NCBI GenBank assembly: GCA_023150835.1
Contig: JAKLKB010000032.1
Location: forward strand, 1 to 51,157
From: Myxococcota bacterium
GTDB lineage: Bacteria > Myxococcota_C > UBA6777
Length of the DNA: 51,157 nucleotides
Direction of reading: 5' to 3'
The notes under the pieces are model-generated. The model ran no database searches. It worked only from the letters and a program-made list of their open reading frames with translations, and was not told the DNA's origin. How positions within the stretch are numbered: position 1 is the first letter of the stretch; each line of letters starts with the position of its first letter. Below are positions 37,219 through 51,157 of this stretch, piece by piece. Position numbers and translations under genes: made by a program.

Positions 37219-37405
37219 AAGAGCAGTCCAAAAACCCAAAAAGATCAAACCAAAAACCCAAACCAAAAGATCACCCCTCTTTTCCCTTCCCTAAATACAC
37301 AAGGACCGAGCAAGAGCAATCCAAAAACCCAAAAAGATCAAATCAAAAACCCAAACCAAAAGATCACCCTTCTTTTCCCTTCCCTAAATACACAAGGACC
37401 GAGCA
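37219..37405 (+). repeat. 93-bp direct duplication of the CARF gene 5' region, including its RBS
   Basis: Two near-identical copies end in ACACAAGGACCGAGCA; the first is followed by AG and the second by TG, which forms the start codon. Confidence 0.85.
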
Positions 37406-38886
37406 TGACGAACCAAACTCCGTTACAAGAAAAAACCGCTGAATGGAAGCGCCTTGCCGAAGAAGGAAAGGGCTCTGTTGACGAAGCCACCGCCTTTTAT
37501 GATCGCGAAGTGTTTCCGCTCGTTCGCACCCACTTCATCGAAGATGCCGAAGCGAAGGGCATTCACCCTGTTGACGCGCTGATCTTGCCCGTAGGCACAA
37601 GCCCTGAGCCGATTATCTTGTCCATCTTGGCCCTCAAGCCGCAGCGCGTGATGTTTTTGCCCACCCCTCAAACCCGCCAGCATCTCGACCGCATCATCGC
37701 TGAAACCCAGCTCAAACCCAGTCAATACCAAGACAAGACGATCGATGGCTCCGATGTCTTGGAGATCTACCGATGTATGCACCAAGCCGTCCGCGAGTGG
37801 CCTATCGCCACAAAGATCGGCGTCGATATCACCGCTGGAAAAAAGGTCATGTCCGCAGCTTGCGCCATTGCAGGCACCCTGATCGAGATGCGGATCTTTT
37901 ACGTCGATAGCGACTACCTCCCCAAACTCCGCCGCCCCGAACCCGGAACCGAGTACTTGAGCGAACTGCCCAATCCGCTCGTTGTCTTCGGCGATATCGA
38001 AGAACGTGAGGCCCGTAAACTTTATGCTGCCGCTGATTATGCCGGTGCTGCCAAACTTTGGGAACACCTCGCCATACGCATCCAAAACCCCACCGCTCCG
38101 GCTCTTTTCTCCTTCCTCGCACGTACCTACGAAGCGTGGGATCAACTCCACTACGCCAACGCCTTGGCTTCCATCCAAAAGCTCAATCAATCCGTCCGAC
38201 AATTTGGAAAAGATGCGCCTGTGTTTTTTCAATCCCACAAAGACCGCCTTTTCAAACAACAGCGCCTGCTCGAACGCATGGCCCATTCCGTCGATGAGAT
38301 GGGCAAAGAGACCGCTCTTGATTTGCAGATCCTCCAACAAAAAGACGCCATCCACGCCCTGATCCTCGAACTTTGGGCCTACGCCCAACGCAAGATCCAC
38401 CTCCGCGACCTCTCGACCGCCTCCTTGCTTCTGTATCGCACCGCCGAGCTTCTTGCACAACGCCGCCTTGCCCTTTATGGCATCGATCCTTCTCTCGCCG
38501 ATTATGCCCAACCCGGTATCGATCCCCAAGCCCTTCTCGATGCCGTCAATGCCCAACGCGTTTCCTTTAAATTTGAACGCCTCCAAGAACTCCCCATCAA
38601 GATCGCTATGCTCGATGCCTACGTGCTTTTGATCGCTCTCAACGATCCTTATGCTGCTCCTCTGGCCGAAAAACAATACAGCGGACTACAGCGCTTCAAT
38701 GGCATCATCAAGGCCCGAAATTCCTCGATCTTTGCTCACGGCTTTAAATTCGTCGCAGACGAACACGTCCGAAAAATGCGCGCCGAAGTCGAAGCACGCT
38801 TGCTTGATTTCTTCCGTGTCGAGGGCGTCTCCGATCCAGAGATCCAAGCCCAACAACAAGAACATTGTTTCCTAACCTTGGAGTGA
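37405..38886 (+). CDS. CRISPR-associated CARF protein with a C-terminal HEPN-like RNase motif (TIGR02710/Cas_02710-like)
   Basis: CARF motifs LILPVGTSPEPII and VDITAGKKVMS; IFYVDS...RRPEPGTE...LPNP; LYRTAEL; HEPN-like RNSSIFAHG. Confidence 0.85.
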   Translation: MTNQTPLQEKTAEWKRLAEEGKGSVDEATAFYDREVFPLVRTHFIEDAEAKGIHPVDALILPVGTSPEPIILSILALKPQRVMFLPTPQTRQHLDRIIAETQLKPSQYQDKTIDGSDVLEIYRCMHQAVREWPIATKIGVDITAGKKVMSAACAIAGTLIEMRIFYVDSDYLPKLRRPEPGTEYLSELPNPLVVFGDIEEREARKLYAAADYAGAAKLWEHLAIRIQNPTAPALFSFLARTYEAWDQLHYANALASIQKLNQSVRQFGKDAPVFFQSHKDRLFKQQRLLERMAHSVDEMGKETALDLQILQQKDAIHALILELWAYAQRKIHLRDLSTASLLLYRTAELLAQRRLALYGIDPSLADYAQPGIDPQALLDAVNAQRVSFKFERLQELPIKIAMLDAYVLLIALNDPYAAPLAEKQYSGLQRFNGIIKARNSSIFAHGFKFVADEHVRKMRAEVEARLLDFFRVEGVSDPEIQAQQQEHCFLTLE

Positions 38887-38926
38887 CCCAAGGCTATCTG
38901 CGAACTTGTATCATAGGAGAATTTCG

Positions 38927-39904
38927 ATGTATGGACTCGAAAAGCTGGAGATCGCACAGGTCTCTTGTCTCTTGCGAGCCAAGCGAAGCGCGGAGCTTCC
39001 ACCTTACCTTGGCTCGACTTTGCGTGGAGCGATCATCGATGCGATGCGGGCGACGGCTTGTCCGATGCGTTGCGAAAAGGTCGATGCTTGCGAAGGCAGA
39101 GCGCATTGCCCTTATGCTTATTGCTTTTCACCGCCACCACCGCCCCGCCAAGAAAACCTTCGGGGCTTTCTTGATCCCCCCCGCCCTGTCTTTGTGATCC
39201 CTCCGCCGATCCAAGCCACCGCGTGGGAACCTGCTCAACCTCTGCCCTTTGATCTGATCTTTGTGGGCCGTTCGATCACTTATTTTCAACAAGTTGCGGC
39301 TTCGCTGATCTTTGCTGTGCAGCATGGCCTCGGAAAAGGCCGCGCCCCTTTTGATTTGCTTGCCGTTCAAAATTGCCTCGGTGAACACAAAGGCGTCTCT
39401 CTTTGGAACCAAAACAAAGACTTCTTTTTGCCTGTTCAACCCACTCCCATCGCTGATGTTTTTCCCCTTCAGATCGGCCCTTCTGATACTGTACATATCA
39501 CTTTTCTTTCTCCGCTGCGTCTCGTCGAGCAAAACAAACTGCTGATGAAGCTTTCGTTTCGGTCTTTTTTCGGCCCTTTGTTGCGCCGTCTCTCTTCTCT
39601 TTTGTACTTCCACTGCGACGGCGAGTTGCAGATGGATATCCGTGATACCTTGTCCCGCGCTGAATCCGTTCAAACCCTCTCTTCTCACCTCGAATACGTC
39701 CCCCTCGAACGTTGGAGTAGTCGGCAAAATCAACACGTCCCGATGGATGGCTTGATGGGTTCGATCCTTTGGAAAGGCGATCTGATCCCTCACGTCTGGC
39801 CTTTGTTGCAGATCGGTTCGTTGCTCCACGTCGGCAAAGGCGTCAGTCTCGGTCTTGGGCGTTATCAGATCTCTTCTCTTCCTTCTCTTCCTTCTCTTCC
39901 CTAG
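38927..39904 (+). CDS. cas6: CRISPR pre-crRNA processing endoribonuclease Cas6 (variant with a Cys-rich N-terminal insert)
   Basis: AGGAGA RBS; YLGSTLRGA, CxxxC...C...CPY, PPRPVF, GLGKGR, FLSPLRL, and the G-rich loop HVGKGVSLGLGRY. Confidence 0.9.
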   Translation: MYGLEKLEIAQVSCLLRAKRSAELPPYLGSTLRGAIIDAMRATACPMRCEKVDACEGRAHCPYAYCFSPPPPPRQENLRGFLDPPRPVFVIPPPIQATAWEPAQPLPFDLIFVGRSITYFQQVAASLIFAVQHGLGKGRAPFDLLAVQNCLGEHKGVSLWNQNKDFFLPVQPTPIADVFPLQIGPSDTVHITFLSPLRLVEQNKLLMKLSFRSFFGPLLRRLSSLLYFHCDGELQMDIRDTLSRAESVQTLSSHLEYVPLERWSSRQNQHVPMDGLMGSILWKGDLIPHVWPLLQIGSLLHVGKGVSLGLGRYQISSLPSLPSLP

Positions 39905-40630
39905 TTGGAAATTCTCTGCGGAGGTTCCACCCCACGCCCCTTCTTGTTTTGTGGGGTTCCACCCCACGCCCCTTCTTGTTTTGTGGGGTTCCACCCCACG
40001 CCCCGCAAGGGAGCGCGGCTCCCTTGACCCCGTATTGGCGGGGCAAACAGACGTTTTTCAAACCAACAACGGCTCCGCTTGAAAGGGCGCGAACACGGGT
40101 TTTTTTGGCAACTGCGTCTCTCTTCTCCTAATTGGACCTATACGATATCCGCGTGATCGGTGATCGAAGGAGAGTACGTAGACGCCCGATTGTTGGGCAG
40201 CCACAGGGGGCTGCCCCTACCTTTTTACGATAAGTCAACGGGCGGATCTCGTATTATGCGGTTGAAAAGGGAAACCCTGAGATATCAGAACGTTGTAGGG
40301 GCGGTTCGCGAACCGCCCACGCCCGAACATCTGCCTTTTTCGTATCGAACTGCGTAAGTCCTATCCTAATTGGAATACGGTATCCGAGAGATGTGTACCT
40401 AAAGCAAACGTCTGCGAATACGTCTTTTTTCTCTGCACGCCACTCCTTTTTTTCAAAAACAACAGCTATGTTTCTTGAACGTCTGCGAACGCGTCTTTTT
40501 TCTCGATAAGCCACTCCTATCTTCGCAAGCTATTTCTTTTCTTCTGTTTGGTTTGTTCTCTCGGGATGTCGGGGATTTTACCCTGTGGTTCTGTATGGGC
40601 AAAGTGACACAAAAAGAATGGAGGTTTGCT

Positions 40631-43117
40631 ATGACAACGCTTCGGATGGACGGGCTTTTTTCCCGCGTTGTGTCGATCGCGTCTCTGCGCAGCGCTTTTT
40701 TTGAAGAACTCGATCGCAGCGAGGCGATCGGCATGGATGGGATGCGGCCTAGCGAATTTGGCAACGATCTCGAACGCGAATTGAGCCGCTTGCACGAAGA
40801 GCTGATCAACGGACGCTATCGCGCCCAACCTGTCGTTCGGATATTTGTTCAAAAACCAAACGGTGGCCGCCGTGCATTGGGGATTAGCGCTGTGCGTGAT
40901 CGTGTCTTGCAACGCTCGATCTTGCGAGCGCTGGCACCGATCTTTGAAGAGCGCTTTCTGGACTGCTCCCACGCATATCGTCCCCGTCGTTCGGCACAAA
41001 CGGCGCTTCACCACCTGCTCTCTTTGCGTGATGCGGGCTTTTCATGGGTGGTCGAGTCCGATATCGAAGATTGTTTTGGTTCGGTGGATGGCCCGCTGTT
41101 GCAACGTGAACTCGAAGCCATTACGGGCGATATCCAGCTTTCTCATCTGGTGATGCGCATCCTTCAATCGGGTGTCTTGGAATCTGGTTGCTTGCGCGAT
41201 GCCTATCTCGGACTACCCCAAGGAAGTCCCTTGAGTCCGCTGCTTTCCAACATCTATCTCCATCCCTTTGATGTCGAACTGGTTCAAGCTGGTTATCCAC
41301 TTGTCCGATACGCCGACGACTTTGTTGTTCTTGCTCACGATCAAAAAGAAGCTGAGATCGCTCTCCAAGCTGTACAAGATGCCCTCGCCCTTCGCGCTTT
41401 GCGACCCCACCCCCAAAAAACACGCCTTTCTCGTTTCCAAGACGGCATCTCTTTTCTTGGCTTTCTGATCGATGCTCAAGACCATCGGCCTAACCCCAAG
41501 TCCATCCAAAACCTTCTCGACCGACTCAATGAGGCCCGCTCTTCCCGTACTAAGCTCTCTCCTGCCGAACGCTTCGCCCAAAACGAAGCGATCCTTCAAG
41601 GTTGGCGTGCTTATTTTTCTCACTTCGGCGATCTTTCTCTGCCTCATCCTGAACAAGCCCTTGCTGCCGCATCCGTCGCTTTACGCCACAACGAAATACC
41701 CACCGCACAGCGCTTTTTGAAACAATCCGCCTCCCTTCACGAACCCTTTTTCGTCCAGCGCCGCACAGAACTCCAGCACAAGCTGTCTCAACTCTCTCCA
41801 CACAAAGGGCTTTTGTCGATCCAGCGCCACGTGCCTTCCTCTACCCCCCGCCGTCTCCTCCCTTACGGCCCCTCCGCTACACATATCGAAGCTCTCCCTC
41901 GCACTCCTTCCCCCACTCCCCCACAATACCCGCAGATCGACCCTTCCTTTCCGTTCGATACCTCGCCGATCACTGCCTCCAACCGCATCCATACTCCTTC
42001 CACGCCTTCTGACCGCACCGATACCCTCGACGCTATCGCCCTGAATCGCATTGACACGCTACCTCCCACGCCTTCTGACCGCACCGATACCCTCGAAGCC
42101 ACCGCTCTACACCCTCTCGGAGCCCACCACATCGCGCTCTCGATCCACACCGAGTCGATGGAGCCGCCGATCTCGCCGCTCCTTCGGCCCGATGTTTCCC
42201 CCTTGGAAGAGATCGAGGTGCTTCGGCGCGAACGCCTGCGTTTTCCCGATGAACCCACGATCTTGTTTGAGCTTGCGGAGGTGTATTGGCGTGCTGATCA
42301 GCCCTTGATCGCGACACATCTCCAACAGATCGCCGAAGCCCTCCCTCGATCTCCTGCTTTCCTTCCGATGCGTTGGCGCACAGAAGGTCCGATCCTTCGC
42401 CAAACACACGCCCTCGAAGATGCCTACTTTGCGCTGTTTTCGCGTGCCTCACACTTTTTGACTTACGGTGTGCAGCCCGATGGGCGCTTGCAGATCATCC
42501 CGCATGATGGGCGCTTTGGAGCGTTGCAGCTTCTTTCGCATCTGCGCGGTGACGCGATCTTTGGAGCGTATCTCTTGCGCCCTGATCAACGTACGCTGTT
42601 TGCGGCCTTGGAGGTTGAACCGACGCAGCGTATCTTGGCGGATGCTTGGAAAGATCCACACGAACGCAGCCAAGCCTCTCAGGCAGCTTGCCTCTACATA
42701 CTCGAAGCCGTCCGACGCTTGCGCGTTTGGGGCATCTCACCCTTGCTTCAACAAAACGGACAACATGGTTTTCGGCTGTGGCTTTTTTTTGCAAACCCTC
42801 AATCTACCGCCTCGATCAAGCGCTTCTGGCGTTCTTTGTTTGTATTCCTTCCTCCTCTTCCCACAGGACTCAGCCGTCAGTCTTTCCCCGAAAGCCCCAG
42901 CGAGCGCTGGCCGCATGGAGGCCGCCCGATCACCTTGCCGCTCGGCTCTCATCCGCGTACAGGCCGACGCACCTTACTTTTGAACCCCGAAGATGCCTCC
43001 ATTCAAGACGTTGAAACCGCCCTCCATTCGGTCCGAATGCTCGATGACTCCGCGCTCTCCCGTGTCTACAACGCTTTCCCCAACCCATCACAACCTCGGC
43101 CTCGACGCAAACACTGA
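40631..43117 (+). CDS. CRISPR-associated group II intron-like reverse transcriptase fused to a TPR-like unit and a degenerate AEP primase-polymerase domain
   Basis: GGAGGT RBS; RT motifs GMDG, KPNGGRRALGI, RDRVLQ, SHAYRP, ESDIEDCF, GLPQGSPLSPLLSNIYL, YADDF, FLGF; thumb-like LQGWRAYF. The C-terminal ~200 aa aligns by eye with the AEP domain of the next gene. Confidence 0.9.
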   Translation: MTTLRMDGLFSRVVSIASLRSAFFEELDRSEAIGMDGMRPSEFGNDLERELSRLHEELINGRYRAQPVVRIFVQKPNGGRRALGISAVRDRVLQRSILRALAPIFEERFLDCSHAYRPRRSAQTALHHLLSLRDAGFSWVVESDIEDCFGSVDGPLLQRELEAITGDIQLSHLVMRILQSGVLESGCLRDAYLGLPQGSPLSPLLSNIYLHPFDVELVQAGYPLVRYADDFVVLAHDQKEAEIALQAVQDALALRALRPHPQKTRLSRFQDGISFLGFLIDAQDHRPNPKSIQNLLDRLNEARSSRTKLSPAERFAQNEAILQGWRAYFSHFGDLSLPHPEQALAAASVALRHNEIPTAQRFLKQSASLHEPFFVQRRTELQHKLSQLSPHKGLLSIQRHVPSSTPRRLLPYGPSATHIEALPRTPSPTPPQYPQIDPSFPFDTSPITASNRIHTPSTPSDRTDTLDAIALNRIDTLPPTPSDRTDTLEATALHPLGAHHIALSIHTESMEPPISPLLRPDVSPLEEIEVLRRERLRFPDEPTILFELAEVYWRADQPLIATHLQQIAEALPRSPAFLPMRWRTEGPILRQTHALEDAYFALFSRASHFLTYGVQPDGRLQIIPHDGRFGALQLLSHLRGDAIFGAYLLRPDQRTLFAALEVEPTQRILADAWKDPHERSQASQAACLYILEAVRRLRVWGISPLLQQNGQHGFRLWLFFANPQSTASIKRFWRSLFVFLPPLPTGLSRQSFPESPSERWPHGGRPITLPLGSHPRTGRRTLLLNPEDASIQDVETALHSVRMLDDSALSRVYNAFPNPSQPRPRRKH

Positions 43118-43202
43118 TGAGGAACCGATCATGCGATCCCAAAATAAATCCTGCTTTGCTCTCCTTCTCTTCTTTCAATACAACCACCCATAGGAGCCGA
43201 TC

Positions 43203-45650
43203 ATGCAAACCGAGCCGCTGCTTCTTTCTGCAAAGTGTTGTGTTGAACAGGCCGATCTCTCCGCGCTTACCGCTTTGCTCCGATCCTTCGATAGCCCTTC
43301 GATCCAAGACCCAGCCTTTCATCTCGAATTGGCCGGATCTTGCGAAAAGATGGGCTTGCTCGATCTGGCCGTTCGCGAGTGTGGCCTTGCACTCCGTGAT
43401 GCTCCCACTCTTGAGGCTGCGCTGCGCTGTTCCCTCCGCCTTTCTCTCGAACAAGGAAACCTTCCTCACGCCGAACGCGACGCCCGACTTTTGCTTCAAA
43501 CCTACCCTCAAGATGTCCCGCTGCGTCTTGAGCTTGGTCGGATCCTTGAGATCTCGGGCCGCTTTAACGAAGCCCTCGAAGTCTACCAATCCACCACGCA
43601 GGGACACGAAAGCCCCCAACTTCAAGAGGCCAAACGGCGTGCAGCGCGTTATGCCCAACGTGGACGTTCTCGACCTGCCGTCGACGATCCGATCTTTCAT
43701 GACGCTTCGGACCCTGAGCAGGCTTCTACACAGTCCCATGATCCCGAACCTCTCGCCCCCACAGAGGCTGATGCGATCTCTTTCGCTCATCTCTTTTCGG
43801 GTCGTGAAGGCGTCTATGCCCGCCAGTGGTATAGCGATACGGGAAAGTCTGGATACACACCCGTCCACCAACCCTTCACTCCGCTTGTTGCGCGCAGTCA
43901 TCTCCTTGGAAATTATACCGTCGGCATCTACCCTTTGCGCATGAATCACAGCGTTTTGTTTCTGGCGTTTGATGTCGATATCGTCCAAGAAGCCCTCACA
44001 AAGGCCGCAAAAGATCAGCAACCCCACGAACTCCCTCGTCTGATCCGCACCGCCCACTCTGTTGCTCGCCAACTCCTTGATGCTTGCGCCATGTTTGATA
44101 TCCCCGCTGTTGTCGAAGATTCTGGATGGAAAGGGCGGCATCTCTGGATCTTTTTCTCCGAACCTGTCCCTGCCGCCTCAGCGCGGCGGATCGCGCAATG
44201 GCTGCTCCACACCGTCGGCCCTCTCCCCGAAGTCTGCCGCGTCGAGATCTTCCCCAAACAATCGCGTCTTGATCCCAAGCAGCTCGGAAACTTGATCAAG
44301 CTGCCTCTCGGCATCCATCGCGTCACAGGCCGCATATGCGCACTTTTGAACCCCGACGGCTCTCACATCGAGCGCCCCATCGAACACTTGCGCTCTCTCA
44401 AAAAATTGTCTCGCCAACGTCTCCAAGAACTCCTTGTCCACGCCGATCACATCGCTTCTCTCAAACAAGAGCGGCAACACGCACCGCCCAAACAGACCAA
44501 ATACCTCGATCCCATCGACTCCAACACCGCCCCTCAAAGCGCCGAGCTTGCTCCCTCCGCCCATCCCCCTTCCCCAACGCCTGCTCCCTACCGCGTCGGC
44601 AAAGACGAGGAAGTCGAGCAAGTCTTGCGTGGTTGTCCTGTCTTGCGCGCCATCGTCGGACGTGCGCTCTCCACCGGTATCCTTTCCAGCGACGATATCC
44701 ACATCCTGATCTACACGATGGGAAACCTCACCCAAGGCGATGCTGCCGTCAATGCCGTCCTTTCCAAAGTCCACAACGTCGATCCGCGTGTCAAACTCAA
44801 ATCTCCCCTCCGCAGCTACCCTACCAGTTGCCCAAAGATCCGCGCCCGTCTCCCCGAACTCACCGCAAGCGTCCCTTGCCATTGTGCTTTTCCCCAACAC
44901 ACAGGCTCTTATCCTCATCCTCTCTTGCATCTCGCTCGCCCTCCACAACTCCCCTCCGCTCCCACGATCTCTCCCTATCCATCCAAGAACCCGCCCTCTG
45001 CGATCTCTTCCTCTGATCCTGCCCCATCCTCCGACCACTCCGCGCTTCCTTACGAAAAAGCTCCCCCCACGATCTTCTCTCCGTTTCATCCTGCCCCATC
45101 CTCCGATCACTCCGCGCTCCCTTACGAAAAAGCTCCCCCCACGATCTTCTCTCCGTTTCATCCTGCCCCATCCTTCGACCACTCCGCGCTCCCCTACGAA
45201 AAAGCTCCCCCCACGATCTTCTCTCCCTCCCGGCCTGTTCTCGCCACAGACGGCTCTCCTCGATCTGCCGAATCTGCGCCTCCATCGTGGGAGATCCTTG
45301 AAAAACCATCCCGCACGCCTTCGCGCTCTGAACTCGAGTCTTGGACCCACCGCCTCCAACAAGCCCACCAAGATCTCTCGCACGCACAACAATCCATCCT
45401 CGCTCTTGAGCACAAGATCGCCCAATTCCTCCACAACCAAGGCACCCAAGAGTGCAAGACTCGATTCGGAACCCTTCGCGTCGACTCCAAACAACGCGTG
45501 CATTTTCTTCTCGAATCTTCTTCTCCTGAACACCTCTCCCCTTCGACCGATCCTCTCGCATCCTCCGAGTCTTCCTCTTCTTCTCCGCACTTTTCCGATG
45601 CGCCTCTCCCCGAGGATGGCGACGACGACACACACGGAGGCCACCGATGA
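43203..45650 (+). CDS. TPR-containing CRISPR-associated primase-polymerase (CAPP; AEP domain plus Cys-rich C-terminal domain)
   Basis: N-terminal TPRs; AEP motifs LFSGREGVYARQW, AFDVD (I), SGWKGRHLW (II), VEIFP (III), GNLIKLPLG; Cys cluster GCPVL...SCPKIR...CHC; 72-nt x3 repeat; ATGA overlap with cas1. Confidence 0.88.
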   Translation: MQTEPLLLSAKCCVEQADLSALTALLRSFDSPSIQDPAFHLELAGSCEKMGLLDLAVRECGLALRDAPTLEAALRCSLRLSLEQGNLPHAERDARLLLQTYPQDVPLRLELGRILEISGRFNEALEVYQSTTQGHESPQLQEAKRRAARYAQRGRSRPAVDDPIFHDASDPEQASTQSHDPEPLAPTEADAISFAHLFSGREGVYARQWYSDTGKSGYTPVHQPFTPLVARSHLLGNYTVGIYPLRMNHSVLFLAFDVDIVQEALTKAAKDQQPHELPRLIRTAHSVARQLLDACAMFDIPAVVEDSGWKGRHLWIFFSEPVPAASARRIAQWLLHTVGPLPEVCRVEIFPKQSRLDPKQLGNLIKLPLGIHRVTGRICALLNPDGSHIERPIEHLRSLKKLSRQRLQELLVHADHIASLKQERQHAPPKQTKYLDPIDSNTAPQSAELAPSAHPPSPTPAPYRVGKDEEVEQVLRGCPVLRAIVGRALSTGILSSDDIHILIYTMGNLTQGDAAVNAVLSKVHNVDPRVKLKSPLRSYPTSCPKIRARLPELTASVPCHCAFPQHTGSYPHPLLHLARPPQLPSAPTISPYPSKNPPSAISSSDPAPSSDHSALPYEKAPPTIFSPFHPAPSSDHSALPYEKAPPTIFSPFHPAPSFDHSALPYEKAPPTIFSPSRPVLATDGSPRSAESAPPSWEILEKPSRTPSRSELESWTHRLQQAHQDLSHAQQSILALEHKIAQFLHNQGTQECKTRFGTLRVDSKQRVHFLLESSSPEHLSPSTDPLASSESSSSSPHFSDAPLPEDGDDDTHGGHR

Positions 45651-46759
45651 TCCTTTATCTTGTCGAACAAGGATGCACTGTCGGACTCAAGAGCGAACGC
45701 CTTGAGATCCGTAAGCAACAAGAGGTCTTGGACAGCTTTCGTCTTGACGATCTTGAACAGCTTGTGTTGTTTGGGTACATCCAACTCACCACCCAAGCCA
45801 TTCAAGCCCTTCTCAAACGCGATATCGACGTCTGTTTCCTGTCTCGCAGCGGAGTTTTTTTAGGCCGACTCGCCGGGAAAATGGGCAAACAGATCGAGTT
45901 GCGTCGCAAACAATTCGCAGGGCTTGAGCAGTCGGCCTTTGCGCTTGATCTTGCGCGCCGTTGCATCGTCGGAAAACTCGCCAACCAACGGGCGTTGCTG
46001 ATGCGTTATCAACGCAAACTCACCGACCCCTCGATCGCGCAGGCCTTGCTTGGAATCCGCCTACTTGTCGGGCAAATCGATCAAGCCCAAGATCTCGATG
46101 TGTTGCGTGGTTTGGAGGGTAAAGCTGCGGCGTTGTACTTCGGTGTGTTGGGGCGGCTGATCTCTGCGCCGCAAGTCCACTTCACCACCCGCATCCGCCG
46201 CCCGCCCCCTGATCCTGTCAATATCTTGCTCTCCTTTGGCTACACTTTGCTCACCAAGATGGTGCATGGCTTCGTTGAGTCCGCTGGTATGGACCCATAC
46301 CTCGGAGCGTTGCATGCTCCGCGTTATGGACGTCCAAGTCTCGCACTCGATCTCGTCGAAGAATGGCGTCCTGTGATCGTCGACACTGCGGTCTTGCGTG
46401 CCATCAACACCAAAACCATCTCTCCTCAAGATTTCCTACCTGCACCCACTTCGCACGATCTTTGGCCCGAAGAATCCATCGAAGAGGACGAGATATCCCT
46501 TCTCGAACCGCCTTCTTCTTCCCTCGATCCGAACCCAGACGCCGAAGATGCCGCGTCTCCTCCGCGCCCTTTGTTGATGCAGCCCGAAGCCGTCAAGCGC
46601 TGGTTCGCTCTCTACGAACGGCGACTCCAAGAAGAAACTTTTTACCTTCCCAAACAATGCCGACTTTCTTATCGCCAAATCATTCGAGAGCAAGCCTACC
46701 TGTGCGCACGCCACCTCAAAGGGGAGGCCGAATACACTTCTTTTCTTCACGAACCTTGA
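45647..46759 (+). CDS. cas1: CRISPR-associated endonuclease Cas1
   Basis: LYLVEQG, GKLANQ, RGLEGKAAALYF, RRPPPDPVNILLSFGY, DPYLGALH, SLALDLVEEWRPVIVD. Confidence 0.96.
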   Translation: MILYLVEQGCTVGLKSERLEIRKQQEVLDSFRLDDLEQLVLFGYIQLTTQAIQALLKRDIDVCFLSRSGVFLGRLAGKMGKQIELRRKQFAGLEQSAFALDLARRCIVGKLANQRALLMRYQRKLTDPSIAQALLGIRLLVGQIDQAQDLDVLRGLEGKAAALYFGVLGRLISAPQVHFTTRIRRPPPDPVNILLSFGYTLLTKMVHGFVESAGMDPYLGALHAPRYGRPSLALDLVEEWRPVIVDTAVLRAINTKTISPQDFLPAPTSHDLWPEESIEEDEISLLEPPSSSLDPNPDAEDAASPPRPLLMQPEAVKRWFALYERRLQEETFYLPKQCRLSYRQIIREQAYLCARHLKGEAEYTSFLHEP

Positions 46760-46891
46760 TCTTGTTTCGGGTTGCGCAGGGGAGGCGAGTGTTGTCTCGC
46801 GATCTTCTCCTTCTTGATGATCGGATGGCTGGGGTTTGGAAGTCTTCTTGGTTTTTTCACGCAAATTTTGTCAACATGGATGGAACAAGCG

Positions 46892-47170
46892 ATGCTTTAC
46901 CTTGTCGTGAGTTACGATATCACCGAAGATCGACGGCGAAACCGAGTCGCCAAGCTGATGGAAAACTATGGCACGCGTGTGCAGTATAGCGTCTTTGAGT
47001 GCTTGCTCCAAGAGCAAAGCCTGCTTGAACTCCAAGAGCAGTTGCAGGCGATCTTGGATCTGGAAACGGACAGCGTGCGTTTTTACCGCTTGTGTGTTCG
47101 ATGTCGAGCGGGCATCGAGATATTCGGGCGCGGAACAACACAAAGCGAAGAACCCTTTGTAATTCTTTAG
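46892..47170 (+). CDS. cas2: CRISPR-associated endonuclease Cas2
   Basis: VVSYDITEDRRR, YGTRVQYSVFEC, DSVRFYRLC. An alternative ATG lies at 46880. Confidence 0.96.
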   Translation: MLYLVVSYDITEDRRRNRVAKLMENYGTRVQYSVFECLLQEQSLLELQEQLQAILDLETDSVRFYRLCVRCRAGIEIFGRGTTQSEEPFVIL

Positions 47171-47440
47171 CTTTCCTTTGTTTTGTGTTCAGTTCGCTTG
47201 CGTTGAAACGCGCCGTTTGTTCTTTGTGGGTTGTTTGTGTGGAGCGTTGAGTTTGTTCCTTATGTTTGTGTGGGGCTTTGCCCCACGCCCCACAAGGGAC
47301 TTTCGCCCCTTGACCTCGACTCGGCGGAACGGATCGACGTTTTACACACAAACGACTCTGCCGCTTGAGTCTTCGCGAACGTGGGGGGTTTTGTTCTCTA
47401 CATCGCCCCACGCAGAAGATTTCATGCGTTGTTCTCTGCG

Positions 47441-47670
47441 AGGGGTTCGCGACCGGCTTTTTTCTTGTTCGTCAACGTGGGTGGGGGGTCGCGACCGGCT
47501 TTTTTGCTGCTCGTCAACGTGGGTGGGGGGTCGCGACCGGCTTTTTTGCTGCTCGTCAACATGGGAGGGGGTTCGCGACCGGCTTTTTTGCTGCTCGTTA
47601 ACGCGGAAGGGGGTTCGCGACCGGCTTTTTTGCTGCTCGTTAACGCGGAAGGGGGTTCGCGACCGGCTTT
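47441..47670. repeat. 42-nt tandem repeat (5 copies plus a partial) between cas2 and the CRISPR leader
   Basis: TCGCGACCGGCTTT recurs at 47447, 47489, 47531, 47573, 47615 and 47657. Confidence 0.9.
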
Positions 47671-47859
47671 CGTTTTGGGTGAAAGTGTTAAGTGAAGTTG
47701 ACAAGCCGAAGCCCCGCAGATCACACGAAGCACAAAAGATCATGAAAAAGCAGCGCGTGTAATTATAAAGGTGGGGCTCTCTTTGGTGGGTGGGTGGTTT
47801 CACGAAAACTGTGATTAAGATCACTTTCCCGAGCAGGTCGACTTTTTTGCGCGAGCGAC

Positions 47860-48090: not shown

Positions 48091-51000
48091 CTTACTAGAG
48101 CTTCCGCGTTCGCAAGCGGATTGAAACTGAACGTTGTACACAGAAACGGTTGCCCCCTCAAGGCCTTACTAGAGCTTCCGCGTTCGCAAGCGGATTGAAA
48201 CGACTTTTTGTTCCTCGACTTTTTGTTCCTCGACTTTCTTACTAGAGCTTCCGCGTTCGCAAGCGGATTGAAACGTTCCCGTTCCTTTTCTCTCAGATGC
48301 CCACAGCTTACTTACTAGAGCTTCCGCGTTCGCAAGCGGATTGAAACCCCCCGCATATAAGAAAAGGCACTTATGTGGAATTCGCTTACTAGAGCTTCCG
48401 CGTTCGCAAGCGGATTGAAACTTAAAAGTGTCCATCATCGTTAAGACGGCTTTCGCGGCTTACTAGAGCTTCCGCGTTCGCAAGCGGATTGAAACATCGG
48501 ATCAAACCAAAGTCGATCACATCTGCCAACGGCTTACTAGAGCTTCCGCGTTCGCAAGCGGATTGAAACATCACGTCACTAACCGCAATAGATGTTTTCA
48601 ATGACTTACTAGAGCTTCCGCGTTCGCAAGCGGATTGAAACCTTGCAACTTTGATGTTGCACCTTAACCATGTTACCTTACTAGAGCTTCCGCGTTCGCA
48701 AGCGGATTGAAACGGGTTGGCATTTGAGCCATTGCTCGCTCAGCAGGGTTCTTACTAGAGCTTCCGCGTTCGCAAGCGGATTGAAACCTTGCTTAGATTC
48801 CACTCTTCCGTAGGGAATTCAAACTTACTAGAGCTTCCGCGTTCGCAAGCGGATTGAAACTTCAAGTTGGGGTGTTTTGGGTGTTCTGGGTGTTTTGCTT
48901 ACTAGAGCTTCCGCGTTCGCAAGCGGATTGAAACCCACAAGCACACCCACGGGTTGGAGATGACATAGCCTTACTAGAGCTTCCGCGTTCGCAAGCGGAT
49001 TGAAACGAAGAGACGAACAGGCGGGTAACCACACTCCATTCTTACTAGAGCTTCCGCGTTCGCAAGCGGATTGAAACCTACGCAGAAGGGCGGCGAATCC
49101 GTATCTACGGTTTCTTACTAGAGCTTCCGCGTTCGCAAGCGGATTGAAACGTTTGTCGGAGGGTTTGGGGTTGGGGAGGCGCTGTGCTTACTAGAGCTTC
49201 CGCGTTCGCAAGCGGATTGAAACCGTCAGCGTCGGCGGGAACGTTAGGGAATTGGATATCCCGCTTACTAGAGCTTCCGCGTTCGCAAGCGGATTGAAAC
49301 TTTTCCTTCAAAAAACTCACGATGTGTCTTCGACCTTACTAGAGCTTCCGCGTTCGCAAGCGGATTGAAACAAAGGTAGCGACTCCTTGACTTCGGGGGT
49401 GAGGCCCCCTTACTAGAGCTTCCGCGTTCGCAAGCGGATTGAAACTGGGCGGCTTCGGCGGCGGCTTCGGCGTCGCGTTGCTCTTACTAGAGCTTCCGCG
49501 TTCGCAAGCGGATTGAAACCGCCATCTCCCTATCAAAGCGGGAGGCGTAGCATGTGCTTACTAGAGCTTCCGCGTTCGCAAGCGGATTGAAACGATGTTC
49601 TTTGCGTGCGGCGGCTCGTCCCCAAGATCTTACTAGAGCTTCCGCGTTCGCAAGCGGATTGAAACAGTAGTAAAGGACTAGCCCCCGCACGGCCACGATG
49701 TGGCCTGCGTCGCGCTTACTAGAGCTTCCGCGTTCGCAAGCGGATTGAAACTATCCACGGGGCAGGATGTTGTACGGAAGCCCCTCACTTACTAGAGCTT
49801 CCGCGTTCGCAAGCGGATTGAAACCTTCGGCTTGGGCTTCGGCTTCTGCCTTGCGACCCTCTTACTAGAGCTTCCGCGTTCGCAAGCGGATTGAAACTAG
49901 GACGATGTCGGCTGCGCGTCGCAGGGCGATGCGAACTTACTAGAGCTTCCGCGTTCGCAAGCGGATTGAAACGCCTTTCTCCACAGCACCTGCGGCGATG
50001 TGGAGCTCAAAGCCATCTTCCTTACTAGAGCTTCCGCGTTCGCAAGCGGATTGAAACTTCGGGAGCCACTGGAATGGCCGCTTCGCCGTCCTCTTACTAG
50101 AGCTTCCGCGTTCGCAAGCGGATTGAAACTCTTTCCATTTTTTGGAAAGAAAAAGGTGCCGTACTTACTAGAGCTTCCGCGTTCGCAAGCGGATTGAAAC
50201 CCACCAAGGTCTTGAGGAACTCGGGCACCTCGCCCCCCTTACTAGAGCTTCCGCGTTCGCAAGCGGATTGAAACAAAGTAATCATGGTAATATTCTCCAT
50301 TTTTTTTGTCTTACTAGAGCTTCCGCGTTCGCAAGCGGATTGAAACATTCCGATTACGAGGGGGACGCCGGCGACGACTCCAAGGACTTACTAGAGCTTC
50401 CGCGTTCGCAAGCGGATTGAAACTGGGCGGCTTCGGCGTCTGCGTCGCGTTGGGCCTTGCGCTTACTAGAGCTTCCGCGTTCGCAAGCGGATTGAAACAG
50501 GGTCTCGAACACGTCAATCAGCCGACGCGCAGTGAACGCGCTTACTAGAGCTTCCGCGTTCGCAAGCGGATTGAAACGGAGGGGGAGCGGGGTTTGTCGG
50601 AGGGTTTGTGCTCTTACTAGAGCTTCCGCGTTCGCAAGCGGATTGAAACTATCATAGAGCGCGGTGTGATGGTCGTCGTCATCGTTCTTACTAGAGCTTC
50701 CGCGTTCGCAAGCGGATTGAAACCAGTTAAACACCAGCTCTGCGAACTTCTTGACGTGGCTTACTAGAGCTTCCGCGTTCGCAAGCGGATTGAAACAAGG
50801 CCGCGTCCAATGCGGCTGCGCAGCAGCCGAGCGCTTACTAGAGCTTCCGCGTTCGCAAGCGGATTGAAACGGCGATCGCACCGTCAACGGCGGCGTGGGG
50901 CGTATCCTTACTAGAGCTTCCGCGTTCGCAAGCGGATTGAAACACATCTCGCACAACTCCCCCCCCTCATCATGGTACCTTACTAGAGCTTCCGCGTTCG

Positions 51001-51157
51001 CAAGCGGATTGAAACAACACTCCACCGCCTTGAACCCGCTTTGTGTTGCGGGGCTTACTAGAGCTTCCGCGTTCGCAAGCGGATTGAAACATATCTGCAT
51101 CAGGGTCACTTCTTAATTTCTTGTTCCTTACTAGAGCTTCCGCGTTCGCAAGCGGAT
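48091..51157 (+). CRISPR. CRISPR array with a 37-nt repeat; 42 repeats (last one truncated by the window end) and 41 spacers
   Basis: Invariant repeat CTTACTAGAGCTTCCGCGTTCGCAAGCGGATTGAAAC with a TCCGC/GCGGA stem and an ATTGAAAC 3' handle. Spacers are unique, mostly 34-40 nt and up to 49 nt. Confidence 0.99.

Follow-up and report, generated by a model that had tools for sequence, protein, structure and literature searches.

The fusion of a reverse transcriptase (RT) to a CRISPR-associated primase-polymerase (CAPP) was described by Zabrady et al. 2021 (PMC8211822), who also reported a yeast two-hybrid interaction between MpCas1 and a fragment of the Marinitoga protein MpCAPP that holds its tetratricopeptide repeats (TPR) and its archaeo-eukaryotic primase (AEP) domain. 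A 2021 review (PMC8632793) places clade 12 RTs 'adjacent or fused to' an AEP domain. For two fusions of the CART-CAPP class, CaCART-CAPP and GlCART-CAPP, Zabrady et al. 2023 (PMC10415136) found that the RT primes and extends and that the primase-polymerase (PP, or Prim-Pol) domain is inactive in vitro; such inactivity was hypothesised to be common, it 'remains unclear why' the domain is kept, and redundancy with loss-of-function drift was suggested. The idea of an inactive, retained Prim-Pol is already published for the CART-CAPP class in that paper. We analysed a 51,157-nt contig of a Myxococcota bacterium (GenBank GCA_023150835.1, JAKLKB010000032.1; this whole stretch is called the window), in which a gene at 40631-43117 encodes an RT fused to a CAPP-type AEP domain and is followed by a separate CAPP gene, Cas1 and Cas2.

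The fused AEP domain is, judging from sequence, very probably both catalytically dead and selectively retained. What is new here is the loss at the sequence level at all motifs, the missing C-terminal domain (CTD), the live CAPP adjoining and the comparative pattern among related loci. A literature search, with most subscription journals outside it, returned no report of sequence-dead CAPP domains, of their pairing with live CAPPs or of stand-alone dead CAPPs.

Domain architecture of the RT-AEP fusion

The fusion lies in an open frame on the forward strand at 40475-43117, which begins at a TTG at 40475 and has no internal stop. Because both the database form of the protein (P0004) and its orthologue (P0156) begin with MTTLRMDG, encoded from the ATG at 40631, the gene most likely starts at that ATG; residue numbers below refer to the 880-residue frame from the TTG. 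The features of the gene are as follows.

40631..43117, + strand: RT-pseudoAEP fusion gene, putative, 828 amino acids from the ATG at 40631
40700..41659, + strand: group-II-intron-like RT domain (RVT_1 E 6e-29, TIGR04416, RYADDFVVL)
41831..42175, + strand: Pro/Ser/Thr-rich variable linker of about 115 residues (22.6% identity to P0156, 26 gap positions)
42200..42340, + strand: three-helix TPR-like unit packed ahead of the AEP domain (helices of the AlphaFold2 model)
42407..43069, + strand: catalytically degenerate CAPP-type AEP (Prim-Pol) domain (envelope residues 645-865, Foldseek, conserved columns)
42611..42619, + strand: motif I, E-V-E replacing D-x-D (E713, E715; BLASTP, phmmer, family alignment)
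42755..42781, + strand: motif II, NGQHGFRLW replacing SGxKGxHxW, with Ser to Asn, Lys to His and His to Arg (same evidence)
42875..42889, + strand: motif III, RQSFP replacing xE/DxFP, with Glu to Gln and with E-S for the next K-Q (same evidence)

The RT moiety matches Pfam RVT_1 at residues 125-330 (E 6e-29) and TIGR04416 at profile positions 15-328 of 353, with 266 bits, under the 300-bit cut-off of that family; its translation contains the catalytic YADD (YxDD) within RYADDFVVL. C-terminal of the RT, an AEP domain was recognised by two families and by the sequence and fold of the Marinitoga protein MsCAPP. Pfam AEP-TOTE (PF22548) matches residues 686-862 with E 1e-10, and NCBIfam NF040561 (PrimPol_Msp, CRISPR-associated primase-polymerase type A1) gives 76.9 bits (E 1e-21), below its 200-bit cut-off. 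A Pfam search found no Cas1 domain in the fusion polypeptide, Cas1 being encoded by its own gene at 45647-46759.

The original prediction, made from the letters of this stretch, had described an intact frame that lacks the Cys-rich CTD of CAPPs. Both points hold: the frame translates without a stop, and the protein ends 15 residues past the AEP envelope. The CTD is also missing in the orthologue P0156 and is present in the relatives P0007, P0030, P0084 and P0141. The TPR-like unit that had been proposed ahead of the domain stands as a structural description. Three helices are confidently predicted there (model residues 7-20, 25-37 and 41-53; predicted local distance difference test score, pLDDT, of 92-95 over the block) and the unit is conserved in RT-fused relatives including P0007 and P0030, yet no Pfam TPR family matches the fusion at E <= 0.01. 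'TPR-like' describes the unit fairly without making it a member of the family.

All three catalytic motifs of the fused AEP are replaced

The CAPP encoded next to the fusion served as the intact reference. It scores 288.5 bits on NF040561 (cut-off 200), matches PF22548 with E 1e-42 and TPR families weakly, carries a Cys-rich CTD, and has intact AFDVD, SGWKGRHLW and VEIFP motifs. BLASTP aligned residues 670-856 of the fusion with residues 214-402 of this CAPP at 32% identity over 189 residues (E 3e-19). The alignment contains exactly the replacements that had been proposed by eye, AFDVD to ALEVE, SGWKGRHLW to NGQHGFRLW and VEIFP to RQSFP, and the structural motifs said to persist are all present (SHLRG, GAYLLR, LPLGSHPRTGRR and LLLNP). 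A phmmer comparison with PDB sequences gave the CAPP of Marinitoga sp. (7nqd/7nqf) with E 1e-10, and there the D-I-D, His and Glu of the crystal structures face E-V-E, Arg and Gln of the fused domain. The fusion has neither the DxD, nor the motif II His, nor the motif III acidic residue of catalytic AEPs.

A word-index homologue search returned one distant relative only. An exhaustive search of 1.84 billion representative proteins gave 508 matches at E <= 1e-3, and the AEP domains of the best 150 of these 508 were aligned. In 140 of the 150, read by eye from the table, DxD, the motif II His and the motif III Glu/Asp are all kept; the other ten are P0006, P0007, P0030, P0046, P0054, P0064, P0084, P0124, P0141 and P0144. 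In 142 intact CAPP-type AEP domains, 41 alignment columns reach a conservation of 80% or more, and the fused AEP keeps 25 of them and loses 16. The lost columns include, in the numbering of the neighbouring CAPP, D257E, D259E, S307N, K310H, H313R, E348Q, Q353S and K366T. The columns that it keeps hold residues such as Gly, Pro, Trp, Phe and Leu (LPLGxH, GxxxW, G..R) and look structural in kind. From the combined loss of the eight active-site positions, rather than from any one of them, we infer that the domain is inactive.

Predicted fold and retention of the fused AEP

Residues 570-880 were modelled with AlphaFold2 from an 80-row alignment (mean pLDDT 91.5, predicted template modelling score 0.88). 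In a Foldseek search of the PDB the top match was MsCAPP (7nqf_B; E 4.7e-15, target-normalised template modelling score, TM, 0.84, root-mean-square deviation 2.9 Å), and all of the top six were Marinitoga CAPP Prim-Pol chains (target-normalised TM 0.80-0.85). Further AEP matches were LigD-Pol, Prim-PolC and RepB' (E 5e-5 to 3e-3). The superposition on CAPP bears out the earlier claim that the fold is retained: in the model, the fused AEP keeps the Prim-Pol catalytic-core fold.

Two homologues speak to retention. P0156 is an 801-residue full-length orthologue on a 538-kb contig, 74% identical overall, and P0006 is a 303-residue fragment 77% identical to the AEP module; P0156 falls in the 90%-identity cluster of P0006. 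Both carry the same ExE/Arg/Gln, so the possibility raised in the original prediction, that close homologues keep DxD/SxH and this copy is simply decaying, does not apply. Identity between the fusion and P0156 is 83.8% in the RT and 22.6% in the linker, with 26 gap positions there; it is 87.1% in the helical unit and N-terminal part and 77.5% in the AEP core, without indels. Since a domain free of constraint would resemble the linker, the AEP module appears to have been retained. In a divergent strain from run X7, 13 of 15 single-nucleotide polymorphisms (SNPs) in the fusion gene are synonymous. Orthologue conservation, the contrast with the linker and the kept fold together favour a retained pseudoenzyme over random decay, as had been suggested. 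No orthologue DNA was found when genome contigs were searched with P0156 and metagenome contigs with an alignment and with P0006.

Origin of the fused AEP

AEP-domain trees were built with FastTree and SH-like supports, and their deep nodes are weakly supported. The fused AEP groups with that of P0030 and, in one tree, also with that of P0007, both RT-fused and degenerate (TxR and ExG, respectively). The group of the window and P0030 is nested in a clade (support 0.94-1.0) of motif-intact RT-fused AEPs (P0008, P0009, P0020, P0048 and L006), and the four best matches to the RT domain of the window, P0008, P0007, P0048 and P0030, are the same proteins as in this AEP clade. The neighbouring CAPP stands far from the fused AEP, among TPR-CAPPs. 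By tree placement and RT-domain matches, the dead domain is an old RT-fused AEP and not a decayed copy of its neighbour; a recent duplication of the neighbouring CAPP was considered and rejected on the distance between the two in the trees.

The window's phylum has six genomes in the collection, and only one other of them (G003) holds a related AEP. Its locus (L006, on contig G003:C804, from the same family) comprises Cas6, two unknown open reading frames (ORFs), a SAVED-domain ORF, an RT-AEP-CTD fusion and Cas1. The fusion there has intact motifs and a Mu Gam/Gp157-TOTE-like C-terminus, and its 10.5-kb contig carries no separate CAPP.

RT-AEP fusions and stand-alone CAPPs in other genomes

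The arrangement was compared across genomes in three surveys. In the first, one genome per species was scanned with the intact-CAPP alignment and the best 80 of 242 related loci were taken. In 78 of the 80 a single AEP gene was seen, without an RT in the flanks, and 70 ORFs outside the window gave a near-full Cas1 match, nearly all of them listed just downstream of the CAPP gene. Two loci were different: L063 has CAPP-Cas1 followed by an RT-AEP fusion with motifs NLN / His / Gln, and in L087 the RT that follows CAPP-Cas1 breaks off at the end of the contig, its probable continuation (L096, on another contig) reading DIT / Arg / Val. The second survey scanned 401 genomes of the phylum of L063 with PF22548; 53 genomes had matches, and 30 regions were taken, including every weak match in a long ORF. 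It gave four more loci with an intact CAPP, Cas1 and an RT-AEP fusion, and the fused AEP is degenerate in all four (L125 SVT/Arg; L126 HAF/Arg/Gln; L127 VVS/Thr; L128 HIR/Arg). It also gave six RT-AEP genes directly upstream of Cas1 without a separate CAPP (L134, L139, L140, L142, L143 and L147), all six motif-intact. G310, one of these six genomes, has a paired system as well, and each of the remaining five has no PF22548 match besides the fused AEP. Counting each fusion by its partners gives the following.

Paired in one locus with a stand-alone motif-intact CAPP (window, L063, L087+L096, L125, L126, L127, L128): fused AEP degenerate in 7/7, intact in 0/7
Pair on separate contigs of one genome (second survey; G084 NLN, G302 ETR/Arg): degenerate in 2/2, intact in 0/2
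Unpaired, Cas1 directly downstream, no separate CAPP: degenerate in 2/9 (L136, L137), intact in 7/9 (the six of the second survey and L006)

Counted by tree lineage, the split is 3/3 versus 0/4 or 0/5, for which a hand calculation yields a probability between 1/35 and 1/56; it was through a live CAPP that the two seed genomes had been found. Of the nine paired cases, only the window has the fusion ahead of the CAPP, and only in the window does nothing follow the AEP domain; the rest keep 230-390 residues there. A Cys-rich CTD was confirmed by eye only in L063, L096, L159, P0007, P0030, P0084 and P0141.

Two of the surveyed fusions have unusual frames. At L131:5506-11967 (- strand) a 2154-residue frame has an RT at 1086-1387, a degenerate AEP at 1582-1833 and about 1000 further N-terminal residues. 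At L143:3071-7983 (- strand) two frames that overlap encode the RT and the motif-intact AEP between them; this may reflect a frameshift or a sequencing error, or else the presence of two genes.

The third survey scanned 401 genomes of another phylum, with matches in 106 genomes, and 20 regions were taken. In 17 of them a protein of TPR-AEP-CTD size has all motifs degenerate (e.g. HxR / ..RRVW / ESFL). These stand-alone dead CAPPs (L155-L171, e.g. L159:6762-8540) have Cas1 directly downstream in 16 of 17 cases and no RT in their flanks, and together with P0064 and P0124 they form one clade with support 1.0. All three that were tested score 300-320 bits on NF040561, above the cut-off of 200, so that this family would name them primase-polymerases although the catalytic residues are gone.

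In the AEP tree the active site was lost at least four times within Cas1-linked genes, in the window lineage, in an NxN clade, in a large RT-fused clade and in the stand-alone TPR-deadAEP-CTD clade. The loss usually comes with a motif II His-to-Arg change, which is found in the window lineage, P0007, P0030, P0084, P0141, P0064, P0124, P0144, L096, L125, L126, L128, L131 and L155-L171. Other residues occupy the position in P0054 (Cys), L127 and L137 (Thr) and L136 (Val), and the NxN clade keeps His.

The locus and its host genome

The fusion gene belongs to a row of CRISPR genes on the forward strand.

37405..38886, + strand: Csm6-type CARF/HEPN ancillary nuclease gene (Pfam Cas_Cas02710, Csm6 HEPN, E 9e-23; Csm6_6H; CARF_Card1)
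38906..39904, + strand: Cas6 gene (Pfam CRISPR_Cas6 E 8e-15)
43203..45650, + strand: stand-alone CAPP gene, TPR-AEP-CTD, all catalytic motifs intact (NF040561, PF22548, TPR matches)
45647..46759, + strand: Cas1 gene (Pfam Cas_Cas1 E 2e-87)
46772..47170, + strand: Cas2 gene, ORF as listed, the true start of which may be further in (Pfam CRISPR_Cas2 E 6e-25, residues 43-112)
48091..51090, + strand: CRISPR array of 41 identical 37-nt repeats, reaching the contig end (41 exact matches)

Csm6, Cas6, Cas1, Cas2 and the 41-repeat array place the fusion in a type III context with an adaptation module. Effector genes are absent from the window, which is an entire contig of a 7.56-Mb genome in 239 contigs; that genome has four Cas1 loci, and two of its other contigs carry RAMP and Cas10-like genes (two RAMP/Cas10-like loci). 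All 41 exact matches of the array repeat in the genome are on this contig.

The CAPP gene contains, after the CTD, an in-frame 72-nt tandem repeat (45016-45226, 2.9 copies, a 24-residue Pro-rich unit). P0033, a near-identical database form of the CAPP, falls short of it by 73 residues, consistent with a repeat whose copy number varies. Between Cas2 and the array there is a 42-nt tandem repeat (47442-47670, 5.5 copies, 94% match), which may be part of the leader region; the ORF that contains it (47178-47762) has no Pfam match. Elsewhere in the window, signalling genes are densely clustered at 12229-32707, on either strand; they encode several Ser/Thr kinases and a cNMP-binding kinase, FHA and VWA proteins, a PP2C-like phosphatase and a response-regulator GGDEF protein, and the sign of the GC skew flips near 22-24 kb, at the gene-strand switch.

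Public metagenomes from several studies, of activated sludge and of aquatic origin, also have contigs with the locus. One DNA contig of run X14 seemingly joins 40721 to 45549 and skips the RT-pseudoAEP and CAPP genes (4827 nt). We did not accept this junction as a deletion variant, its shorter side being only 21 letters long; it may be chance or a foreign join.

Possible roles of the retained domain

We consider the fusion to be probably an adaptation enzyme of the CART-CAPP type, with the RT as its sole catalytic part and the AEP as a retained pseudo-enzyme. In this scheme the RT would make and prime complementary DNA (cDNA) on RNA, and the separate motif-intact CAPP would supply DNA-dependent priming and extension as well as the Cys-rich CTD missing from the fusion. 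The dead AEP module would hold the RT in the adaptation complex by docking on Cas1-Cas2, on the CAPP or on both, possibly through the surfaces that TPR+AEP of MpCAPP uses for Cas1 when tested by yeast two-hybrid, and the fusion would then be the non-covalent counterpart of RT-Cas1 fusions. That such docking is the main job of the dead AEP we propose tentatively, by analogy with MpCAPP. A complex prediction of a Cas1 dimer with the dead AEP module returned a score of 0.22 (mark 0.32), in a run without controls, and counts neither for nor against binding.

Docking is compatible with a role in nucleic-acid handling, and the two are not mutually exclusive. The dead cleft might bind a nucleotide, a template or the 3' end of a primer and hold RNA/cDNA for the CAPP (second strand) or for Cas1-Cas2. 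The DNA-binding Prim-Pol fold is predicted to be intact, and the motif II change to Arg keeps a positive charge in the window lineage and in most of the other degenerate AEPs found, so that it looks like remodelling of the pocket and not erosion. Three Lys/Gln residues beside the catalytic motifs of active CAPPs are lost, however (K310H, K366T and Q353S in CAPP numbering), and we regard such handling as rather unlikely. It is improbable that the domain is a redundant remnant, dispensable and drifting because the RT has taken over priming and a live CAPP adjoins, as in the scenario of Zabrady et al. 2023. The CTD loss in the window lineage does look like progressive reduction, and the catalytic residues differ between related dead AEPs (ExE, ExG, TxR), as drift would have it. 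Yet the fused AEP has no stops, frameshifts or indels, its core and helical unit stay far closer to the orthologue than does the linker of the same protein, its fold is predicted with high confidence, and dead AEPs persist across deep clades, always in Cas1-linked genes. The stand-alone dead CAPPs beside Cas1 weaken 'dead because redundant' as a full account, and they support a catalysis-independent role of the fold beside Cas1.

A domain that is still an enzyme, in which ExE with Arg and Gln performs some nucleotidyl transfer with, for example, another metal or substrate, is the least probable reading, and very improbable in our judgement. Glu is able to ligate divalent metals, DxE variants of motif I occur in active AEPs such as human PrimPol, which counts for residual catalysis, and ExE is fixed in three sequences of the window lineage. 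Set against these are the change of the motif II His, the motif III Glu and five more motif-adjoining positions, the ExG or TxR of relatives in the same clade, and the inactive PP domains of the two tested CART-CAPP fusions (PMC10415136).

Returning to the RT as sole catalytic part beside a retained pseudo-enzyme, several points weigh against this interpretation or limit it. As Glu can coordinate metals, ExE alone is no proof of inactivity. Two dead fusions, L136 (RVV) and L137 (RT cut by the contig), have no separate CAPP, and a PF22548 scan of their genomes gave no other match. Because these two and the stand-alone dead-CAPP clade have no live partner, a dead AEP can persist without one. The survey covers few cases, which are related to one another: the paired dead cases amount to only three tree lineages and the intact unpaired fusions to four or five, so the independent evidence is modest. 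The metagenome-assembled genomes are also incomplete and several contigs are short. Within strain X7 the AEP module has only two SNPs, one synonymous and one a Leu-to-Pro change towards the family consensus, too few for the domain alone. Contigs from RNA libraries of one sample (X13, X16) contain parts of the fusion gene at 100% identity, possibly through DNA carry-over, and give neither its strand nor its level.

More broadly, we consider it possible, short of likely, that the CAPP-type AEP fold also serves spacer acquisition by Cas1-Cas2 in a second, non-catalytic capacity that has been used repeatedly, the RT-fused dead copy usually being accompanied by a live CAPP and an RT-fused AEP that is alone in its genome keeping its catalytic residues. 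If this is true, the Prim-Pol domains of solo CART-CAPPs would be active in vivo, contrary to the published guess of general inactivity, and paired systems would be three-enzyme adaptation machines composed of an RT, a dead AEP scaffold and a live CAPP. The pattern predicts that the dead module is needed for complex assembly or substrate hand-off and that solo fusions need the AEP active site in vivo. The locus is a natural experiment in which a live RT, a sequence-dead and conserved AEP without a CTD and a complete CAPP stand beside Cas1-Cas2 in one operon. It bears on how type III CRISPR systems convert RNA or DNA into integrable prespacers, and on the question, raised by the group that characterised RT-CAPP fusions, of why these keep an inactive Prim-Pol.

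Comparison with known systems

The closest described proteins are CaCART-CAPP of Caloramator australicus (CCJ33120) and GlCART-CAPP of Geobacillus lituanicus, which share with the window fusion an N-terminal group-II-intron-like RT followed by a CAPP-type Prim-Pol, the Cas1/Cas2 neighbourhood and the type III setting. PP inactivity was shown in vitro for these two, whereas that of the window fusion is predicted from its motifs. In the window fusion the replacements affect each of the three motifs and five more positions, and the gene has a variable linker of about 115 residues and a motif-intact TPR-CAPP gene immediately downstream; in the term-searched passages of Zabrady et al. 2023 no statement came up on the motif state of the two described PP domains or on a second CAPP. 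CaCART-CAPP has a CTD (residues 522-713), and the window fusion has none.

The Marinitoga CAPPs MpCAPP and MsCAPP (TPR-AEP-CTD; 7nqd, 7nqe, 7nqf, 7p9j, 7qaz) have the same AEP fold (TM 0.84), share HLxG, GxY, the motif II Trp, FP, LPLGxH and TGRR with the fusion, and likewise carry a helical unit N-terminal of the AEP and lie in a gene upstream of Cas1. Unlike them, the fusion lacks DxD, the His, the Glu and the CTD, and has only three N-terminal helices, without a Pfam TPR match. RT-Cas1 and Cas6-RT-Cas1 fusions (e.g. Marinomonas mediterranea; PMC10415136, bioRxiv 10.1101/2023.09.01.555893) also use a group-II-like RT for spacer acquisition, coupled to the integrase. The window fusion has no Cas1 domain, and its coupling would instead be non-covalent, by way of the dead AEP.

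Other degenerate CAPP-family AEPs occur as RT-deadAEP-CTD proteins with a live CAPP (L063, L096, L125-L128, L129, L131) and as stand-alone proteins beside Cas1 (L155-L171, P0064, P0124). They and the window fusion share the CAPP-type signature, the replaced motifs, mostly with the motif II His changed to Arg, and genes that are always Cas1-linked. In contrast to the window fusion, which has no CTD, they keep 230-390 residues after the AEP and belong to other AEP clades, and the other RT-deadAEP loci are ordered CAPP-Cas1-RT-deadAEP, as opposed to RT-deadAEP-CAPP-Cas1 in the window. Two further proteins, E. coli PPRT (bioRxiv 10.1101/2025.09.07.674619) and DRT7 (bioRxiv 10.64898/2026.04.18.719102), also join an AEP/PrimPol and a group-II-like RT in one polypeptide, but in the reversed order, with the PrimPol first; they are described as proteins of defence or repair and not of CRISPR adaptation, and their PrimPol as highly conserved.

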